This document shows positions 4,499-28,859 of a DNA stretch of 64,000 bases, one piece after another. Numbering within the stretch: position 1 is the first letter of the stretch; each line of letters starts with the position of its first letter. This DNA is from an uncultured Bdellovibrionales bacterium (GTDB taxonomy: Bacteria; Patescibacteriota; Minisyncoccia; Moranbacterales; UBA1568). The notes under the pieces are model-generated. The model had not been told where the DNA came from and did not search any database. It saw nothing but the letters and a program-made list of their open reading frames with translations. The stretch is taken from contig CAZGXN010000005.1 in the NCBI GenBank assembly GCA_964530135.1, positions 2,269 to 66,268 on the forward strand, read 5' to 3'. Position numbers and translations under genes: made by a program.

Positions 4499-5131
4499 TT
4501 ATTTCGAATAGTACTCAACAACCATTTGCGCGTCGACGGAAATACCCACATCTTCACGCGATGGGAGCGCGAGCATCTTACCCTCAAGTTTCTCAGCATC
4601 GAGGGCGAGCCAATGCGGCACATCGTTCTTGTTCTTCAAAATTTCCATCCGGTTCTTGATCACAGCCTTTTCCTCTTTACTCGCCTTCAGGACAATCACA
4701 TCTCCGATTTTAACTTCATACGACGAGATATTCATCCGCTTTCCATTCACTGTAAAGAACTTGTGGCTGACGAGCTGGCGGGCGGAGATACGCGACGGAG
4801 CAAAACCGAGACGGTACACGACATTATCCAATCGGCACTCGAGACGCTGCAAGAGTAGGTCTCCTGTAGCTCCTGGACGCAAACGGCTCTCCTCAAAGTG
4901 ATGCCGGAATTGCCGCTCCATCACGCCGTACAGGTGCTTTATTTTCTGCTTCATCGAAAGCTGACGACCGAATTCACTACGACCACGAGATGGATTGTGT
5001 CCATGAATACCTGGTGCATATGGCCGACGAACCATTGCACATTTTGGAGAAAGACAACGATCACCCTTCAAAAAGAGTTTTTCGCCGGCCCGCCGACAGA
5101 GTTTACATTTGGAATCGAGGTTGTTGGCCAT
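4499..5131 (-). CDS. rpsD: 30S ribosomal protein S4
   Basis: N-terminal Cys-rich segment CKLCRRAGEKLFLKGDRCLSPKC and S4 core similarity. Confidence 0.93.
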   Translation of the reverse strand: MANNLDSKCKLCRRAGEKLFLKGDRCLSPKCAMVRRPYAPGIHGHNPSRGRSEFGRQLSMKQKIKHLYGVMERQFRHHFEESRLRPGATGDLLLQRLECRLDNVVYRLGFAPSRISARQLVSHKFFTVNGKRMNISSYEVKIGDVIVLKASKEEKAVIKNRMEILKNKNDVPHWLALDAEKLEGKMLALPSREDVGISVDAQMVVEYYSK

Positions 5132-5146
5132 AACGTTGCGAGGAAG

Positions 5147-5587
5147 TTAGATACGACGAGGACGACGAGGACGACAGCCATTGTGCGGGATCGGAGTGAT
5201 ATCTTTGATGGATGTGAGATTGAAACCATTGTTTGCGAGAGCTCGAATCGAGGCCTCTCGACCCTGACCCACACCTTTCACAAATACTTCGAGATCTTGA
5301 AGTCCGTATTTCTTCACTTTTTCAGAAACCTCCGCAACAACCTGAGTCGCTGCATATGGAGTTGATTTTTTAGCACCTTTGAAACCAAGATGCCCCGAGC
5401 TCGACCAGGCCAACACGCCGCCATTCATATCTGCGAGCGTTACAATCGTATTATTATAAGTACACTGAATACTGGCGCGACCAACCTGAACCAAACGCTT
5501 TACTTTTTTGGTGCGCTTTTTGGTATCCGCCTCTTCGGCCACTGGCGCTACCACCTCTACTTCCTCGGTTGTCAGCTCTTCTGCCAT
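5147..5587 (-). CDS. rpsK: 30S ribosomal protein S11
   Basis: GRASIQCTYNNTIVTLADMNGGVLAWSSSG and later conserved S11 blocks. Confidence 0.95.
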   Translation of the reverse strand: MAEELTTEEVEVVAPVAEEADTKKRTKKVKRLVQVGRASIQCTYNNTIVTLADMNGGVLAWSSSGHLGFKGAKKSTPYAATQVVAEVSEKVKKYGLQDLEVFVKGVGQGREASIRALANNGFNLTSIKDITPIPHNGCRPRRPRRI

Positions 5588-5595
5588 AGGATTCC

Positions 5596-5985
5596 TTATG
5601 TCTTGCTATCGGATTTCTTACGACCACTGCCCATCGTCTTTCTCACATTACCACGGACCGTCCGTGTGTTTGTTTTGGTACGCTGACCACGCACTGGCAA
5701 GCTCTTGGCATGACGGATACCGCGATACGATCCGATTTCCTTGAGCCGTTTGATGTTCATCTTTACCTGATGCCGAAGTTCACCTTCAACACGGTGTCCT
5801 TTTTCGATTGTTTCGCGCAAACGGTTGGCATCTTTCTCAGAAAGGTCTTTTGTCCGGATATCCCGATCAATGTTCAAAGACTCGAGGATCTTGCGGCTCG
5901 CTGGACGGCCGATGCCATAGATATAGGTCAACGCGATTTCGACGCGCTTGTTATCAGGCAAGTTGATACTGGCAATACGGAGCAT
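5596..5985 (-). CDS. rpsM: 30S ribosomal protein S13
   Basis: [26 protein letters not shown] typical S13 N-terminus. Confidence 0.95.
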
Positions 5986-6113: not shown

Positions 6114-6338
6114 TTAGACTTTCAAACGCTGAACGATTCGTCCTTTGGTTAAGTCGTAGGGACTCATATCGACGATCACCCGATCTCCCGGAAGCAAACG
6201 GATATAATGCACCCGCATCTTTCCAGAAATGTGAGCCAACACCTCATGTCCATTGTCAAGACGGACTTTGAAGGTAGTGCTTGGAAGAGACTCGATCACC
6301 TCTCCCTCGAAACGAATAAGTTCTTTGTTATTTCCCAT
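6114..6338 (-). CDS. infA: translation initiation factor IF-1
   Basis: [39 protein letters not shown]1-like IF-1 sequence. Start trimmed to MGNNKE. Confidence 0.9.
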
Positions 6339-6581
6339 ATATTGCACCGGCTCTGGCGAGAGAATACTTTGCCAAAACAAAAAGAGAGTCATGCGTATAA
6401 TTCGTGCGTTCCTCAGTCTTGCATCGCGCCAGTATACCCTCTCTCACGAGATCCGTATGCACTTTTCAAATGTGCTCACAGTGTACTGGAAAGCCGAAAT
6501 GTTGTCAACAAACCGAATACTTGACTCCATCAAGACAATTCTGGGAGTCATTTTTATTGTCAGAAAATTCCTATTTTTGGC

Positions 6582-7298
6582 TTATTTACCATACCGCCGC
6601 TCCCGACCTTGATACTCTTCGATTGCGCGACGAAACCCTGCTGCATCAAAGTCCGGAAAGTCACAATTCGGAAAATAGAGTTGAGCATCTTTGGTCTCCC
6701 ACATCATAAACCCAGCGGACAAATGCGGATCATCTCCGGTTCGGATGAGAAGGTCCACTGACGGAATATCCGCTGTCGACAAATGACGCTTGATCACTTT
6801 CTCCGTTACCATACCTGGAGCAAGCCCTTCTCCTGCAATCCGTCGGACCGCCTGGAGCATATCATCATCCCCACTATAGGCGAGAAAAAAATTCAGAAAG
6901 TATTGATCGTGTTCGCGAGTGGCTTCGATCCCTTGTTTCAAAATAGTTTTCAAACTATCAGGAAATTGCTCTTCCCATCGACCGATACAGCGAATCCGCA
7001 CCCTATCTCGAAACACATCTTGATCTGCCATGAGCTTTTCAAAATAAGTCGCATAAATTCGAAGGAGTTCTTGTTTCTCTCGCAGAGGTCTCCGAACGAG
7101 ATTTTCTATCGATGAGCCCCAAAAAGAGAGTTCTTGAATTCCCATCCGTCGCGCCTCACGCACAATCTCTTCAAATCGCTCAGCTCCGGCCTGATGCCCC
7201 TCCCATGGCTCCTGGCCATGTTCCTTCGCCCAACGGCGATTGCCGTCCGGAATGATCGCCACATGACGGGGAAGAAATTTTTGGTTGAGTTCGGTCAT
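6582..7298 (-). CDS. uppS: undecaprenyl diphosphate synthase (cis-prenyltransferase)
   Basis: HVAIIPDGNRRWAKEHG signature. Start trimmed to MTELNQ so it does not overlap the upstream gene. Confidence 0.9.
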   Translation of the reverse strand: MTELNQKFLPRHVAIIPDGNRRWAKEHGQEPWEGHQAGAERFEEIVREARRMGIQELSFWGSSIENLVRRPLREKQELLRIYATYFEKLMADQDVFRDRVRIRCIGRWEEQFPDSLKTILKQGIEATREHDQYFLNFFLAYSGDDDMLQAVRRIAGEGLAPGMVTEKVIKRHLSTADIPSVDLLIRTGDDPHLSAGFMMWETKDAQLYFPNCDFPDFDAAGFRRAIEEYQGRERRYGK

Positions 7299-7314
7299 AC
7301 AAAGAATTCTGGCA

Positions 7315-8400
7315 TCAATATTCGCGTTTGGCCATATAGTCAGCCACTCCCTCGAGAAAAGCGCGGGATTCGGGATGAATAGGGATTTGCATTTCATTCA
7401 AGGCCTGTTTGCCTTCCTCAATGTAGCGGAGGGCTAGATCCTTGGCTGCCTGCAATGACCCTGTTTCACGGAGAATTTCACGGAAACGGTTGATATCTGT
7501 GTGGGTGAGATGCATACCTCGCTTGAGGAGTTGATCAAGCTCTTTTTTAATGGTTCGATCAGCATGCTCAAAGACATATGCAACCAAAAGTGTAATCTTG
7601 CCCTCACGAATATCAGAACCGATTGGTTTCCCGATACGCTCCTCATCTCCGTAGATACCCAAGATATCATCCTGGATTTGGAAGGCGATACCCAGCGGAA
7701 GCGCATAACGAGACATCTCCGTTGCAAGTTCTGGTGTACCACCCGCGAGCAAGCTTCCAAGATGCAGTGGCCCTTCAACGGTATATCGCGCTGTTTTCTT
7801 CTCGTACATCGAGAGAATTTCCTCACTTGTGGCTTCGCCCTTGTATTCGATATAGATATCGCGGGCCTGCCCCACAACAGTATGAGAAACTATTTTCTGC
7901 ATCCGAGATAAGGCGGCGTAAACATTTTTTTCAGGGAAACCGGACTGAAAAATAATATCGTTGCCAAGTGCAAAGACCATATCCCCAACAATAAGTGCAA
8001 TGGAGTCACCAAAGTGATCGGCATTCGAGAGAAACAGATACTTCCGTCCCCAGGCCCGATAGCGTTCATGCAGCGTCGGTTCGCCATGACGGAGAGTATC
8101 CCGATCGATAATGTCGTCATGTATGAGGAGAAACATATGGATAAGCTCCACCGCCACGGCTGTGCTCATCAGTCGCTCTCGGTCGGTGCCGCCCGCTGCC
8201 AAGTAACCATAATACATAAACGCCGGCCGGAGGCGTTTTCCACCAGCCAGAGTCATTGCCTTCACATGTTTCAGCGCATCATAGACAAGTGCGTCTTCCC
8301 GCTTTGCTTCTTCGAGAGCATCGTCAAAATACGCTGCGATTTTTGGGTCAATCTGCGCTTTGAAGGCTTGTAATGTGGCCGGAATATCCATGTGCTTCAT
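7315..8400 (-). CDS. trans-polyprenyl diphosphate synthase (IspA/IspB family)
   Basis: FARM motif LLIHDDIIDRD and SARM motif FQIQDDILG. Chain-length specificity is not determinable from sequence. Confidence 0.85.
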   Translation of the reverse strand: MKHMDIPATLQAFKAQIDPKIAAYFDDALEEAKREDALVYDALKHVKAMTLAGGKRLRPAFMYYGYLAAGGTDRERLMSTAVAVELIHMFLLIHDDIIDRDTLRHGEPTLHERYRAWGRKYLFLSNADHFGDSIALIVGDMVFALGNDIIFQSGFPEKNVYAALSRMQKIVSHTVVGQARDIYIEYKGEATSEEILSMYEKKTARYTVEGPLHLGSLLAGGTPELATEMSRYALPLGIAFQIQDDILGIYGDEERIGKPIGSDIREGKITLLVAYVFEHADRTIKKELDQLLKRGMHLTHTDINRFREILRETGSLQAAKDLALRYIEEGKQALNEMQIPIHPESRAFLEGVADYMAKREY

Positions 8401-22333: not shown

Positions 22334-24802
22334 ATGCGTCCACGCACCGACAATCGGTCCGGAAAAACCTCTCCGGCCCCGCTCGAGAAACACTTTAGAG
22401 AAATCGTCGTGGGAAGCGGTCGGTCCCAAGAACCGTACATCATCGCCTTTCACTACGCGAGTGACAATGTCTCAAGCTCTCCTCTGGGGACGCTTTTCGG
22501 CTTTTTCGAAGTCGAGATTCATGACCAAGATGCCGCCTACATCGTGAATTTCCTTGCCTCCGTCGCAAAAAAAGAATACTTTGCCAACCCCCGCCGCAGC
22601 GCTATTGAGAGCTTTGAGACCACTCTACACAAGATCAATGTTGCCCTCGCTGAAATTGTCAAACACGGCAATATCTCCTGGCTGGGCCACCTCCATGGAG
22701 CGCTCGGGATAACGACTCAGGACACACTCCATTTTTCGGTTACCGGTGAGGGAGAAATATACCTCGCGCGTGAAGATGACCTCCATTCCATCAGTACTGG
22801 TCTTGCTGAAAATGAAGGCGAACCCCACCCCCTCAAAACCTTTACCGAAGTCGCGAGCGGAAAGCTCTATGATGGTGATCTCGTATTCACCCTTTCCCCC
22901 TCGGTCTGGTCACTCTTTTCTCCTGATGACCTCCGCCGAAGCCTGAACCGTCTCGGGCCAGCAGGTTTTGAACAGTTTCTCCGAACCGCACTCGTCAATG
23001 AGCTTTCCACAGCGGCCATCACGCTGATTACTTGCATGGCTCCCGTCGAATTGAAAAAGTCTGCGTCCCTTCCGCCCAAACCCGCCGCCAATCTTACGAA
23101 TGTTTGGAGCGACACACCCTTCCTCGCTGCCCGACAATCAAAGACTGGAGCGACCAAAACAAAAAATGTAGCCGAAACCAAGGATGAAAGCAATGATCCA
23201 ATTCGTCAGACCGCAGGACATATCTATATTCAAGCCTCACCCGATGAAGCCTTTGAAACGACTGACAACCCCTGGAGAGAACGGTGGGAAATGTTCTCGC
23301 ACGGGTTTGAAGAACAGGTACGCTCCTGGAACACTGCTCTCCGAAAGTCCAGCCGGCGCATCGGTAAAGAAAGCGCACTCGCCTTCGCCTTCCTCAGTAC
23401 CTGGACCGGACAGGTCGGTCGGACACTGAATCGTCGCATCCGGAATCTCAAACGCACCTGGAATGATAGGCGTCAGAAAAAGGCGCAAGAAAAAGAACAG
23501 GCAGCGCTCCTGAAGGTGACTGAGAAAATGCCACAAGTAAGACCTGCGGCAGAGCCAAGAGAGGAGACGATCCCTTCCGTCGCTTCTACGATCGCACATT
23601 CTGATCCAACCCCACCTCCGCGCGAGGAAACAAATACTTTCCCACCGTCATCTGAACGCGTCCGGCGGTTTTTCCAACGCGAATCGCGCCAGGAAGTAAC
23701 TTTTGGTACTGAAGCTAAACAACTGTTGGCTCAATGGAATGAGCGAATCATGCAGCTTAAATCTTCCATACTTCCTACCTTAGAACAGACTCGTCGTCAA
23801 TTAAAACATCTAACACTCTGGACAGAGCGATACCCTGCTGCCCTGCCCAGCCGCTTCCGAGAGTTTTGGGATGCCCGCTCTCCGAAAGAGCGGTGGCTGT
23901 GCATCGGCCTGGTTGTGGCTCTCATCATCGGGACACTCGCCTCTCTGAACTGGTCGGACAAAAAAGTATCGCCTGTGGAAACCATCGTAACCTCGCCCGT
24001 CCCAGAGTCCTCCGCGCCTGTCTTTCCGCCAGCGAACGAACCCAAGGCCACACTCCTCTCGACAAACCGATCTATCCTCTCGCTCGCGGACGGCATGCGC
24101 GCGATCGCTTTCGCCTCGGTCAACAACCTCCCATTCCTCGTGACTGATCGGGGTATCGTGAATCTCGCCACGCAGGAATCCATTGCTACCCCAGAACCGA
24201 TTCGTCTTGCAACAGCGATGGACGATTTGGATTTACTCTTCCTCCTTGGGACTTCCAATCGACTGTACAATTACAGTGTCACAACCAAAAAATTCAGTGA
24301 AAACACTCTCCCCCTTCCGGCCGGAACAAACATAGACGCCCTCGGCGCCTACCTCACCTATCTCTACACTCTCGATCAAGGGGCAGGCACTCTGCACCGT
24401 TTCCCGCGAGCTGAGGGCGGTTTCGACACACCTACTCGCTGGCTGAAAGAAACGGTGGCCCTCACCGAGGGTGGCAATATGGCCGTCTTTGAAAATGTCG
24501 CTCTCACCCTCCAGAACAAAGAACCCGCCCTTTACAGCCGCGGCATCCGAAGCACCGGCACTTTCGCTGGCACGACTACTTTGGTCACGACTGATGCTCT
24601 CACTTTTGACCAGAAGACTGGTGATCTCCTCGTTCTCGATCGAGCTCAGAAACGCATCATCCGCTGGTCAAATACTGGCACGCTCCTCGCCCAATACTAT
24701 CAAGAGTCATGGGGCACCGCTGAAACCTTCACGCTCTCACCCGACGGCACTGAACTCCTTGTCTCCGACCAAACTTCCGTCACTGCCTGGCCGATTCAGT
24801 AA
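22334..24802 (+). CDS. large (822 aa) hypothetical protein with cytoplasmic N-domain, central TM helix and C-terminal extracytoplasmic domain
   Basis: Long ORF with TM helix WLCIGLVVALIIGTLASL near residue 515. Basic/Pro-rich linker. No family confidently recognised. Confidence 0.45.
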   Translation: MRPRTDNRSGKTSPAPLEKHFREIVVGSGRSQEPYIIAFHYASDNVSSSPLGTLFGFFEVEIHDQDAAYIVNFLASVAKKEYFANPRRSAIESFETTLHKINVALAEIVKHGNISWLGHLHGALGITTQDTLHFSVTGEGEIYLAREDDLHSISTGLAENEGEPHPLKTFTEVASGKLYDGDLVFTLSPSVWSLFSPDDLRRSLNRLGPAGFEQFLRTALVNELSTAAITLITCMAPVELKKSASLPPKPAANLTNVWSDTPFLAARQSKTGATKTKNVAETKDESNDPIRQTAGHIYIQASPDEAFETTDNPWRERWEMFSHGFEEQVRSWNTALRKSSRRIGKESALAFAFLSTWTGQVGRTLNRRIRNLKRTWNDRRQKKAQEKEQAALLKVTEKMPQVRPAAEPREETIPSVASTIAHSDPTPPPREETNTFPPSSERVRRFFQRESRQEVTFGTEAKQLLAQWNERIMQLKSSILPTLEQTRRQLKHLTLWTERYPAALPSRFREFWDARSPKERWLCIGLVVALIIGTLASLNWSDKKVSPVETIVTSPVPESSAPVFPPANEPKATLLSTNRSILSLADGMRAIAFASVNNLPFLVTDRGIVNLATQESIATPEPIRLATAMDDLDLLFLLGTSNRLYNYSVTTKKFSENTLPLPAGTNIDALGAYLTYLYTLDQGAGTLHRFPRAEGGFDTPTRWLKETVALTEGGNMAVFENVALTLQNKEPALYSRGIRSTGTFAGTTTLVTTDALTFDQKTGDLLVLDRAQKRIIRWSNTGTLLAQYYQESWGTAETFTLSPDGTELLVSDQTSVTAWPIQ

Positions 24803-25000
24803 TGTACACAAAATTAAAAGCCCTGGAGATCCGTTAGATCATCAACAGGACTTGTTACCTCTTGCGAGGCATACTTGAGCAGCTCATTGGCCACTTGCAT
24901 CATTCAATTCACAACAAAAAAAACTACAATCTTTCAAGAGGATAATTGGAGCAAACAGACACAAAATTTCTCTTACAACGGTTGAAAACTGCTTTTTAGC

Positions 25001-25588
25001 TCATCTCTTTTTAAGTGAGACAGAGGGATACCCCATGAGACAGGCGGAACGAAACTCTCGTCCCATGTCATTCCAAGGATTGCTGATCAGGATATATCCG
25101 AATTTCCAGCGTGCTTCACCGGAATACTCTGTAGTAATCTGACCAGTATCAGGATCTTCGTCGATCCAGGAATCTTCTTCGAGAGAGAGACAGACAATGT
25201 AGCGCCGCCCACCTTTCCCTTTCACGACAGTTCCGGGGAAGTCGATGTAGCTGATGCCAAAACGCCGGTGAAGCGCCATGAGAACACTCTTTTGGACTCG
25301 ACCCCGACTCTTCATGAGAGAGTAATCTTGCCACAGCGCCTGACCGACAGCCGCGTCGAGCAGGATATATCCCTCTTCTTCGAGGCAATGGATCTTGCAA
25401 GCCATGCTCGCACTCCAGTACGGCGGCTGTTCCGGAAAGATGACACTTCCGAAGTCTACCTTCCGTAACATAAGAGAGCGACGATCTTGGGATTCGATGA
25501 CCAAGTCACCTCCGCTGCTGAAATACAGCGAATGAGGGTCGAAGGGCGTTGCCCGATTGATGGGCAGGAAACGCGAGAATCGTATCAT
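25001..25588 (-). CDS. hypothetical protein (195 aa), last gene of the ATPase operon
   Basis: ORF with no recognisable motifs. Co-directional with the upstream cluster. Confidence 0.4.
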   Translation of the reverse strand: MIRFSRFLPINRATPFDPHSLYFSSGGDLVIESQDRRSLMLRKVDFGSVIFPEQPPYWSASMACKIHCLEEEGYILLDAAVGQALWQDYSLMKSRGRVQKSVLMALHRRFGISYIDFPGTVVKGKGGRRYIVCLSLEEDSWIDEDPDTGQITTEYSGEARWKFGYILISNPWNDMGREFRSACLMGYPSVSLKKR

Positions 25589-25757
25589 GTGATGCTCCGA
25601 TTGTGAAAGAAATCCCTATCTGGCCGGGACCGGACGCCGTTTCAAGGTTTAATTTGAAACATTCTATTATACACTTTTTTATGATCTTTGTCTAGGGTCA
25701 AAAGAAACGAAGAAAAAGGCTCTAGAAGAATTCCTTTTGGTTCAAATTTTGGCAAGG

Positions 25758-25830
25758 ATTAAACTCGGGCACCTTCAGTAAGCTGGATACGGGACATGAT
25801 TTCCTGATTCACGATGCGGGTATCGCGACA
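25758..25830 (-). pseudogene. remnant copy of the 3' end of the 831-aa ATPase gene (encodes RDTRIVNQEIMSRIQLTEGARV*)
   Basis: About 62 bp with ~80% identity to 26377-26438. The in-frame translation matches the ATPase C-terminus RDARIVNQEIMSRIQLIEGAVVK. In-frame stops lie immediately upstream of the remnant. Confidence 0.55.
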
Positions 25831-25885
25831 GTTACTATTTTCACAGTACTCTACCATCCCACGATCTCTTTGGGATTACTTCCGT

Positions 25886-26323
25886 TTAGAGCTGATCGAT
25901 CGCATTTCTCAATTCAGCTACGAGAGACTGTAACTCTCCATCTGACATGACAGCACGAACACCATTTGCATGATCCAAATCACCCAGCCGGACATTCGGA
26001 ATGAAGTGATAGTGGAGGTGTTCGACGCTTTTCGGCCCGGCCGTGCCTTCCCGAACCATGAGCGTAAAGTTTTCATACCCGAGATACCGGAGGAGACGGG
26101 AACTCTTTTGGGCGAGATCCTGAATGTCTTCGTATTCTTCTGGACTGAGGTGGAGGAAGGATTTCCGGTGTTCTTTCGGAATAATCAGCAAATGGTGCTT
26201 GTGATACGGAGCGAGCGCATAGGTGACATAGGCGGTCTTATTTTCGATGAGCCGCCGGTCATCCGAAGCACAGAATGGGCAAGAACCAAGCGGGAGCGCA
26301 TCAATATAGTCAGTATATTTCAT
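25886..26323 (-). CDS. HIT-family (histidine triad) hydrolase
   Basis: HLHYHFIP histidine-triad motif plus N-terminal CPFC zinc-binding motif. Confidence 0.8.
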   Translation of the reverse strand: MKYTDYIDALPLGSCPFCASDDRRLIENKTAYVTYALAPYHKHHLLIIPKEHRKSFLHLSPEEYEDIQDLAQKSSRLLRYLGYENFTLMVREGTAGPKSVEHLHYHFIPNVRLGDLDHANGVRAVMSDGELQSLVAELRNAIDQL

Positions 26324-26363
26324 AGAGAGATTGGTTACTCATTACCCTGTCGCCCAGGCGCTC

Positions 26364-28859
26364 TTACTTCACAACTGCACCTTCAATAAGTTGAATGCGA
26401 GACATAATTTCCTGATTCACGATACGGGCATCACGACCATAGCGCAGCCGTGAGAGCTCTTTGAGAGCGTTCGCAACTTCCTGATCACCCGTTGTTGGTG
26501 GATAGGTCTTCAGGTTAAATGGCTTGGTTAATTCATTGTTTATGAGGAGTCGAGCAAAAGCCTGATAATTATCCACATTGACGATATCGTGCGCCGTGAA
26601 AACTGGAGCAAACTGTTTCTCGAGAAATTCAGCATCCTCGGGGCCAACCCGAAATGCGATGAGTGAACCAACATTTCCGAAGACCGCCTTTGATATTTCT
26701 TCTTTTAATTGTCCGATAAATTGATGCGCGAGGACAAGAACCAGCCGATATTTGCGTGCTTCCGAGAGAATCTGGGCAATCGAGGTCGTCGTAACATTTT
26801 GGAACTCATCCAGGTAAAGATAGAAATCTCGACGTTCTGCCTCTGGCTGATCAACTCGTGAGAGCGCAGCCATGAGAATCTTCCCAACCACTACCATGCC
26901 CAAAAGTCGCGCGTTGATTTCACCGATTTTCCCTTTCGATAGATTTATAAGAACGATTTTCCCCTGGTCCATCAGTTCACGAAAATTCAACGCACTTTCC
27001 TGCTGAGCGATGATGGGACGCATCATATCATTCGAAATGAAAGTCGTCAGTTTTGAGGTAATGTACGGCACCATATTAGCGAGCGCAGCTTCACCGCCAG
27101 CCTTCTCTGCTTCTTTCAGCCAGAAGTCGCGAACAATTGGATTTGTACAGTGCGCCAACTTATACCGACGGAATTCTTCGTCAGCCAACACTTTGGGGAT
27201 CTCCATAAGTGTCGAGCCACTTTCAGGATGCTCCATGATGAGGAGCATGGCGTTACGCATGTATTGCTCAAACATCGGACCACCTGTTGATTTCATATCA
27301 TACAACTGGTCAAAAATACCGATCATTTCATTAATAACAAAGGTCTTTTGCTCGGGGTGCTGGGGATCATATTCCAGCATATTGATACCGATCGGACGAG
27401 CGATATCGGCCGGATCAAACACGATAACATCCTCAGCCCGTTCTTTCGGAATAGCCGTCAAGATATCTTCAATCGCATCACCATGCGGATCGATAAAACA
27501 GAATCCTTTACCCGATCGCGCATCTTGCTTCGCCATCTCCTGTAAATAGTTGGATTTGCCGACACCCGTCTGCCCGACAACATACATATGCCGACGGCGA
27601 TCATTGTCCGTAATACGAATCTCTGTCTGTGTATTTCGGTAGTCATTATAACCGAGAAGAATCCCTTCTTTTGGAATATTGATAGGTGGTGGAGCAGCCC
27701 CTGCTTTCAGCCACTTGATCTTGGGAGTCTCTGTCGTCGAGATAGGGAAATGAAAGAAACTCGCCACTTCGTCCGGTGTGAGAATCATCGCAGCATCCGG
27801 ATCGAAGTTTCGAAAGATATAATGATAAGCAGCTCGCTTCAAAGCAGTACGTTTTTTCACTCGAAAACTATTCACTTCCGGATTTTCAAACTGAGTAAAA
27901 GAGTTCTCCATATGACTCAGAATACTTTCCGCTCGCGCTTTCGTAGCCGCCGAGGCGAGCAATCGAATATTGACCGAAAAAGCCACCTGACTCGCCTTCG
28001 CATCGATTGTCTTCACCAGCTCTTGTTCCTCTGGTGTAAGGACGACCGTTTTCTTTTCCGTGAGTGTCTGTGATTTTGTGTCCTGCTGCAATAAAATCCG
28101 TCCGACACCCTGCAATGTCGATTTTCCAACCAATGATGCAAATGTCTCAGGATGCGCATCTTTTAGACGCTTTCCGGCTTGCATATGCTGGGCGATATGG
28201 CGACTTCCTTGGCGCCAACCAGCCGGCGCAGGAGAGAGGATGATCTGGATCGCCGCTCCTTCCGTCACCGTTTCAAGTTTGGAAAGCGCATTGGATATCT
28301 CATTGAGTGGATCAACGGGGAGATTCTTGTACGTCTTTAGTGGCAATGCATGGCTCGCTGAAAGCTCTAAAATCGATACAGCAGTTTCTCCGGCCGGAGA
28401 AAAAATAGTGTAGTCTGATACCTTTTCAATTGCTGCATGAGGGAAAAAGCTATGGATCTGTTTCTCTACACTCTCACGATAGTGCTTGGGTACCGACAAA
28501 TAAAAGAAAATTTCCTCACTCGAAGAGGGATTGGCAATTTCAAAAATGATATGTGGTGGGTCGAAAAATAAGTGCTTCCACCATGGGAAATGGCGCTTGA
28601 GTGAAGCAAGTGATATCAGCAACTGTTCCATCGCCCGAATTTCCTCACGCCATTCATCGGGGCTATGCGTGGCGCCCTCCGCCGCCTTTTTTTTGCCAAC
28701 TTGGACTATCTCAAGGTCAAGATTGAGCGACTGTGAGACTTCAAAACGCAATAATAAAAACGCTTTCACTAACAGAAAAATACCAGAAACAAGTGCCAAT
28801 GCACCCGAGAGGTAAGCAAGCGGAAGAAGAATCACATTCAAATCAAATTCGGAAGGCAT
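26364..28859 (-). CDS. membrane-anchored P-loop ATPase of the HerA/FtsK/VirB4-VirD4 (type IV secretion / DNA translocase) clade
   Basis: N-terminal TM helix, ~400-aa N-domain, Walker A YVVGQTGVGKSNYL, Walker B FYLYLDEFQNV, then LVLVLAHQF. Architecture resembles VirB4/TraG-like conjugative ATPases. Confidence 0.65.
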   Translation of the reverse strand: MPSEFDLNVILLPLAYLSGALALVSGIFLLVKAFLLLRFEVSQSLNLDLEIVQVGKKKAAEGATHSPDEWREEIRAMEQLLISLASLKRHFPWWKHLFFDPPHIIFEIANPSSSEEIFFYLSVPKHYRESVEKQIHSFFPHAAIEKVSDYTIFSPAGETAVSILELSASHALPLKTYKNLPVDPLNEISNALSKLETVTEGAAIQIILSPAPAGWRQGSRHIAQHMQAGKRLKDAHPETFASLVGKSTLQGVGRILLQQDTKSQTLTEKKTVVLTPEEQELVKTIDAKASQVAFSVNIRLLASAATKARAESILSHMENSFTQFENPEVNSFRVKKRTALKRAAYHYIFRNFDPDAAMILTPDEVASFFHFPISTTETPKIKWLKAGAAPPPINIPKEGILLGYNDYRNTQTEIRITDNDRRRHMYVVGQTGVGKSNYLQEMAKQDARSGKGFCFIDPHGDAIEDILTAIPKERAEDVIVFDPADIARPIGINMLEYDPQHPEQKTFVINEMIGIFDQLYDMKSTGGPMFEQYMRNAMLLIMEHPESGSTLMEIPKVLADEEFRRYKLAHCTNPIVRDFWLKEAEKAGGEAALANMVPYITSKLTTFISNDMMRPIIAQQESALNFRELMDQGKIVLINLSKGKIGEINARLLGMVVVGKILMAALSRVDQPEAERRDFYLYLDEFQNVTTTSIAQILSEARKYRLVLVLAHQFIGQLKEEISKAVFGNVGSLIAFRVGPEDAEFLEKQFAPVFTAHDIVNVDNYQAFARLLINNELTKPFNLKTYPPTTGDQEVANALKELSRLRYGRDARIVNQEIMSRIQLIEGAVVK

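Follow-up and report, generated by a model that had tools for sequence, protein, structure and literature searches.

The last part of a gene encoding an 831-residue ATPase occurs twice in the stretch of contig CAZGXN010000005.1 analysed here (64,000 nucleotides in full, referred to below as the window), once at the end of the working gene and again, as a short leftover, on the far side of a gene for a HIT-family hydrolase. Our preferred reading, to which we give a probability of roughly 60%, is that these 69 bases (positions 25759-25827) are a dead copy of the last 22 ATPase codons and their stop, which marks the far edge of an old insertion of the HIT gene and has later been overwritten by recombination. 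All of the features described lie on the minus strand, apart from one gene that converges on them, and L-numbers (L001 and so on) designate the loci with which the window was compared.

Read along the minus strand, the ATPase gene (26364-28859) closes with the codons RDARIVNQEIMSRIQLIEGAVVK (26367-26435) and a stop at 26366-26364, and is followed by a spacer of 40 nucleotides (nt; 26324-26363), the HIT gene (25886-26323), a second spacer of 58 nt (25828-25885) that has no ATPase similarity, and the leftover, whose 22 codons RDTRIVNQEIMSRIQLTEGARV (25827 down to 25762) and TAA stop (25761-25759) repeat ATPase residues 809-830 and finish with ...EGARV*, the usual ATPase ending in the closest relatives. 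The initial annotation, which had placed the HIT gene between the intact gene end and a remnant of about 62 bp at about 80% identity, was right in this order and in its translations of both gene ends, and the repeat it described is real, with figures that now stand at an ungapped 61 nt, 52 of them identical (85%), in a local alignment of 25769-25829 with 26377-26437, the two copies lying 608 nt apart. The score of this alignment is 77, against 18.4 ± 2.0 (maximum 26) in 500 shuffles, and the repeated sequence is not of low complexity. The stop codons that had been said to lie immediately upstream of the remnant are further off, the nearest in frame being 17 codons away (25881-25879), and an ATG-started frame of 32 codons, its ATG ten codons upstream, spans the leftover in the window.

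Evidence that the HIT gene is the inserted element comes from 80 loci taken from one-genome-per-species contigs. In most of these the ancestral arrangement is found, with the homolog of an 822-residue protein encoded on the opposite strand 21-150 nt past the ATPase stop and no HIT gene; the same empty site is present in three members of the window's own clade with about 90% ATPase identity, L016, L020 and L112. A HIT gene after the ATPase gene is confined to the window, L009/L015, L010, L011-14 and L095-L099, and HIT orthologs of 69-76% identity are situated at other loci, some of them before a glycosyltransferase gene and a SWIB gene and one of them past a histidine kinase gene. Because the site is empty in most relatives and the distant HIT orthologs lie elsewhere, the HIT gene must have moved into the gap between two convergent genes, and these same two observations back the earlier suggestion that it was inserted with a duplication of the target. 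The locus thus shows the repeat topology, the empty site and the foreign HIT locus of a gene-end relic left by a duplicative insertion. Genes for SWIB, glycosyltransferase, sigma-factor and rhodanese proteins, which flank the distant HIT orthologs, were searched for in the window and are absent from it, and when the HIT flanks are aligned, homology between the window and the distant HIT loci is limited to the coding region. A metagenome scan with the HIT sequence returned three loci only, all ATPase-linked and none with a leftover. Folding predicts strong terminator hairpins followed by T runs in the ancestral gaps; the idea that the repeat is a duplicated terminator was rejected because these terminators sit in the gap and do not overlap the repeated coding end.

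The arrangement is older than the initial annotation supposed when it described the locus as recently remodelled. In a blastn comparison with L010, from a complete genome of 1.2 Mb (CP064975.1), the window is collinear through ATPase gene, HIT gene and spacer up to the stop of the leftover, where the alignment breaks off. In the window, L010 and L009 alike, similar spacer sequence leads up to the leftover, whose first codon is the same Arg. The piece has fared differently from one lineage to the next, with an open frame in the window and, in L010, a frame interrupted by TAG and without a matching start; the L009 copy is badly decayed, about 62% identical and carrying a 1-nt indel; L011 retains at most a possible tail of 18 nt, and L095-L099 have none. 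Between lineages, four-fold degenerate sites are only 31-46% identical in the ATPase gene and 39-55% identical in the HIT gene, and the number of synonymous substitutions per synonymous site (dS, NG86) is above 1.1 or not computable. A junction common to lineages whose synonymous sites are saturated cannot be recent; the young part is the sequence that the leftover now has, which looks refreshed by recombination, and not the arrangement itself.

The pattern of substitutions is consistent with such refreshing. The leftovers of the window and L010 are 76% identical, against 0.42 for the four-fold sites of the HIT gene (P=3e-8), and their differences are split 5:1:10 over the first, second and third codon positions. 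Compared with the window's own working copy, the window leftover has 1, 1 and 8 differences at these positions (Fisher P=0.0014). The L010 leftover matches L010's own gene end at 48 of 51 positions, with L010-specific bases common to both, and the window leftover and its own gene end have two unique bases in common. A neutral stretch of this age should be unrecognisable, yet the leftover is well kept, which argues that it has not simply been decaying since its origin; conservation that depends on codon position in an untranslated piece indicates in turn that its sequence was taken from a working gene fairly recently. Given the single common junction, occasional gene conversion is the simplest reading of these data.

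A second trace of recombination may be preserved beside the repeat. In a patch at about 26080-26390 of the window, comprising the last five ATPase codons (AVVK*), the 40-nt spacer and the first ~200 nt of the HIT gene, the window matches L009 at 85% identity and other relatives at ~70%; outside the patch, L009 has no such advantage over the others. The mosaic suggests an old recombination tract, the left edge of which would coincide with the right end of the repeat.

The order of events may be pictured as follows. At the start, the ATPase gene and the 822-residue gene converged on a gap of less than 150 nt with a terminator hairpin in it. In an ancestor of a small group of Moraniibacteriota the HIT gene moved in from another locus and the terminal ~69 nt of the ATPase gene were duplicated, leaving one copy of the gene end to close the working ATPase gene, as it still does, and the other stranded behind HIT. 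These steps are shown by the empty site, the foreign position of the HIT gene, the common junction and a window free of further ATPase fragments. The likeliest route to the duplication, we infer, would be a single crossover by which a circular molecule with the gene end beside HIT joined the chromosome; alternatively, replication may have switched template and re-entered 69 nt upstream. To judge from the substitutions, the stranded copy has probably since been overwritten at times from working gene ends, those of its own genome or of relatives, and occasional overwriting of this kind would explain why the frame is open in the window, interrupted by a stop in L010, heavily decayed in L009 and deleted elsewhere. 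The leftover probably has a single consequence, namely that it forms a direct repeat offering homology for the precise loss or re-gain of HIT.

Several observations weigh against this account. Simple conversion from the present working copy misfits the window, where GC at third codon positions (GC3) is 60% in the leftover and 30% in the working copy; in the relatives' genes it is 65-80%, and the local intergenic DNA has 38-42% GC. Given this mismatch, the leftover must derive from an earlier form of the gene or from an allele of a relative. The 58-nt spacer, which has no conversion partner, resembles the L010 spacer weakly and nonetheless significantly (score 5 against -7.6 ± 3.8 for shuffled sequence, P=0.0015), and this similarity could hint at constraint. 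All of the deductions from the leftover are drawn from 60-69 nt in three lineages, and the relations between the species from one gene tree. Finally, neither a recombinase or transposase nor inverted repeats are associated with HIT in the window, and the molecular mechanism is one that we infer.

As regards base composition more widely, the window's ATPase gene as a whole has a GC3 of 47%, compared with 57-71% in all close relatives, and its neighbouring genes differ less (47-56% against 52-65%). The ATPase genes of the relatives are rich in GC3 relative to the rest of their own loci.

The distribution of HIT bears on a different account, which we regard as unlikely overall: that HIT and its flanking gene-end repeats form a cassette which moves between related genomes by homologous recombination alone. 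The repeats would recombine to release a circle (gene end, spacer, HIT, spacer), and the circle would re-enter a HIT-less relative by a single crossover at the ATPase gene end, giving the same junction and stranding an end of mixed donor and recipient sequence. The tree of ATPase proteins is in keeping with such transfers, since HIT-bearing lineages are monophyletic in 0/200 bootstraps: HIT-bearing L099 and L098 are basal (192/200 and 181/200), HIT-less L112 groups with HIT-bearing L011 and L009 (152/200), and HIT-less L016 and L020 form another nested pair. In L097 the HIT gene follows an ATPase gene of outgroup type, and its neighbour L076 has no HIT. A moving cassette would also account for the beginning of the 85% patch shared with L009 at the right end of the repeat, for a leftover that is GC3-rich like the relatives' genes and unlike the window's own, and for differences from every working gene end that fall almost only at third positions, as expected of a piece of a foreign working gene. 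Any transfers must nonetheless be old, the HIT genes of these lineages being synonymously saturated (four-fold identity 39-55%), and the HIT tree, in which L097 is outermost, roughly parallels the ATPase tree. The patchy distribution is fitted equally well by losses of HIT or by replacement of the whole locus through ordinary homologous recombination; no circle or empty-site variant was seen within one population, and copies of 60 nt are too short for crossover points to be placed. The distribution calls for two or more losses of HIT, for several gains, or for a swap of the locus by recombination, all compatible with the data; a crossover joining the two gene-end copies would excise HIT precisely, and so would ordinary replacement of the allele by that of a HIT-less relative.

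We consider it very unlikely that selection has kept the leftover, perhaps together with the spacer, as a 3' untranslated element or terminator of HIT, as a binding site for a protein or RNA that is also present at the ATPase end, or as a small protein of 32 codons. In favour of selection, the leftovers and spacers resemble each other more closely between the window and L010 than synonymous sites do, and the frame with its upstream ATG is open in the window. This 32-codon frame is, however, not conserved across lineages, being stopped and without a matching start in L010 and frameshifted and heavily decayed in L009, and most HIT-bearing relatives (L011 and L095-L099) keep HIT without the leftover. 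The interval from HIT to the 195-residue gene that lies beyond the leftover gives no Rfam match, only a sub-threshold chance hit; its single-strand fold is no better than that of shuffles (z=0.19), and a terminator scan of 24700-26500 found 0 terminator-like sites. The ancestral gap held its terminators outside the coding end, and the dependence of conservation on codon position points to copying from a gene rather than to selection on the piece. Read-through of the HIT stop codon into the leftover was ruled out because the frames differ across the 58-nt spacer. There is no sign that the leftover has a function of its own.

The initial annotation had offered a decayed tandem paralog of the ATPase as an alternative, in which the leftover would be the last trace of a second gene. 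Beyond the fact that a gene fragment in the same orientation lies downstream, little speaks for this, and we judge it highly improbable: a tblastn search of the whole window with the full ATPase found only residues 809-830 (22 codons) downstream and no other fragment; the similarity ends sharply at the Arg codon of a G-R-D motif, with unrelated sequence upstream; a pair of ATPase genes at this place is seen in no relative among more than 90 loci; and the gene between the copies is the unrelated HIT gene, with its orthologs elsewhere. Chance similarity or an assembly artefact, for which nothing speaks beyond the short length, can practically be dismissed, since the alignment score lies 29 standard deviations above shuffled sequence, the same kilobase from the ATPase end to the 195-residue gene, leftover included, is 100% identical in L001, L003, L005 and L008 (independent contigs from other samples and assemblers) and 99.7% identical in L004, copies that differ at 15% of positions would not be collapsed by an assembler, and the complete genome of another species (L010) has the same feature; misassembly is excluded as far as the comparison of independent assemblies allows.

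Several known systems leave a comparable direct repeat. The closest is Campbell-type integration, in which a circular DNA enters by a single crossover through the fragment of the target gene that it contains; this likewise yields a gene end, the insert and a second gene end in direct orientation, with the first copy keeping the gene whole and the second lacking a gene body. In Escherichia coli, circles bearing such a fragment give rise, through one crossover, to duplications of 109-950 bp that flank the insert (PMC3240628). The present case differs from this in having no plasmid or vector backbone, one housekeeping-type gene of 438 nt with ~100 nt of spacers, and a common stretch of only 69 nt; it is moreover an ancient, inherited event with a hypothetical circular intermediate.

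Islands and prophages driven by an integrase enter the 3' end of a transfer RNA, transfer-messenger RNA or protein gene and bring a replacement end with them, which gives rise to the attL/attR repeats. Here too the insert restores the 3' end of its target and the displaced end forms a direct repeat on the far side, whereas the insert measures 0.5 kb against many kb in islands and there is no sign of current mobility. The longest exact run common to the two copies is 17 nt, ATCGTGAATCAGGAAAT, which after long divergence is equally compatible with a former att core and with none. An integrase-driven element is disfavoured, as neither a tyrosine nor a serine recombinase lies in or beside the insert, which by Pfam holds HIT only and adjoins a 195-residue open reading frame (ORF) without family. 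The target-site duplications made by transposases also place a direct repeat of the target on both sides of an insert, usually of 2-15 nt as against the 69 nt found here (and 122 nt and ~40 nt in L072 and L028, described below); a transposon is disfavoured on account of this length, together with the lack of inverted repeats bounding HIT and of any Y1 transposase-like sequence in the window. An integron cassette was considered and rejected, since HIT is not followed by an attC-like inverted repeat and an integrase is lacking.

Gene conversion of a pseudogene fragment offers a parallel for the later history of the leftover, which carries lineage-specific bases of its own genome and is closer to working copies than neutral sites allow. 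It departs from that model in that the tract is very short and the present parent in the window is, by its GC3, not the best donor, so that DNA of relatives may be involved.

Scars of the same type were found at the same gene end in three independent lineages, namely the window's group, L072 and L028. In L072 (DMXN01000036.1) a repeat of 122 nt of the ATPase gene end, identical at 121/122 positions (5053-5174 and 6476-6597), flanks an insert of 1.3 kb that contains the truncated ORF of a methyltransferase as well as an IS200-like (Y1_Tnp) ORF. The stop codon is where the two copies diverge (TGA versus TAG), and the second copy lies 20 nt from the convergent gene. An inverted repeat of 54 nt (85%; 5613-5666 and 6208-6261) flanks most of the Y1 ORF. 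L072 is an independent and apparently fresh event of the same kind. In L028 the gene-end repeat comprises 27 nt of exact identity and 40 nt in all (5148-5187 and 7973-8012), with the second copy directly after an IS200-like ORF (7284-7946), at the far side of an insert of 2.8 kb that includes a 677-residue SLT/SH3 protein, and the convergent gene following ~110 nt later. A search for Y1 (IS200-like) sequences in the window and all other loci found them only in L072 and L028, and the two are not alike. The IS200-like family, to our knowledge, makes no target duplication, and the position of an HUH gene of this type directly before the stranded copy in both loci might point to a so far undescribed role in duplicative insertion. 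Rather doubtfully, we also raise the idea that the ATPase gene end is a recurrent landing site for DNA that brings a fresh gene end, and that the resulting repeats act as portable homology arms by which cargo like HIT is lost and re-gained among related genomes of the candidate phyla radiation (CPR) with no dedicated recombinase.

The leftover adds a further case to a known type of evolutionary scar rather than representing a novel type of system, with the modest twist that recombination apparently keeps the scar looking young. It dates and orients a gene gain in a CPR bacterium by showing where HIT went and that the gene end was duplicated, and it marks a hotspot of lineage-specific cargo. 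It is, besides, a small natural case of a pseudogene fragment kept recognisable by recombination long past neutral saturation, which is of importance for the dating of such remnants by divergence.

The genes of the locus may be described briefly. The ATPase ORF (26364-28859) comprises DUF8128, a DUF87/HerA-like core and a TraG/VirD4-like C-terminal part according to Pfam and NCBIfam, with the Walker A motif GQTGVGKS; it is described as secretion-type, its homologs number thousands and belong to Candidatus Moraniibacteriota according to their sources, and in the closest species its identity is 90%. The product of the HIT gene, 145 amino acids from 438 nt, matches Pfam PF01230 (E=1.3e-11; 45.4 bits against a cut-off of 21.5), with an intact histidine triad HLHYH at residues 102-106. 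Directly upstream of its start codon, a motif of ~28 nt, GGTAAnGAGTAAC...CTATG (26324-26351), is common to the window, L009, L010 and L011, and may be a promoter or translation signal for HIT; the remainder of the 40-nt spacer is not alignable across these four HIT-bearing loci, and the spacer as a whole aligns with that of L009 only.

Beyond the leftover lies an AT-rich intergenic stretch (25589-25758; 38% GC) in which no strong terminator hairpin remains and a promoter-like site, TAGACA-17-TATAAT at 25694-25666, faces the 195-residue ORF (25001-25588). An independent contig of 29 kb in L002/L008, ERR3094302_187614, ends within this stretch at window position 25651, ~110 nt past the leftover, which could reflect strain variation downstream. 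The 195-residue ORF is further cargo in the same gap, is confined to the window's lineage and absent from all related loci compared, and has no match in Pfam, NCBIfam, PHROGs or PDB. The 822-residue gene (22334-24802, plus strand) converges on the ATPase gene and is its direct neighbour in most relatives. The gap between the two genes (24803-26363 in the window, with matching gaps in L009, L010, L011 and L099) is a hotspot for cargo that is placed after HIT and differs by lineage, comprising the 195-residue orphan in the window, an inosine monophosphate (IMP) cyclohydrolase gene in L009, a hydrolase gene and a helix-turn-helix (HTH) gene in L010, orphans of 169 and 188/202 residues in L011-14 and a 477-residue orphan in L099; sequence searches of the other cargo ORFs against PHROGs and PDB gave no match. 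At the closely related HIT-less locus L112 (3950-4100), the ATPase has a shortened tail (...SRIQLAG*, 826 residues), followed by a terminator hairpin and then the convergent gene. Many public records of metagenome-assembled genomes that carry this Moraniibacteriota-type locus (L016, L018-L022 and others) are titled 'uncultured Bdellovibrionales', 'Micavibrio', 'Fimivivens', 'Bathyarchaeia' or 'Saccharibacteria', and such labels look unreliable.

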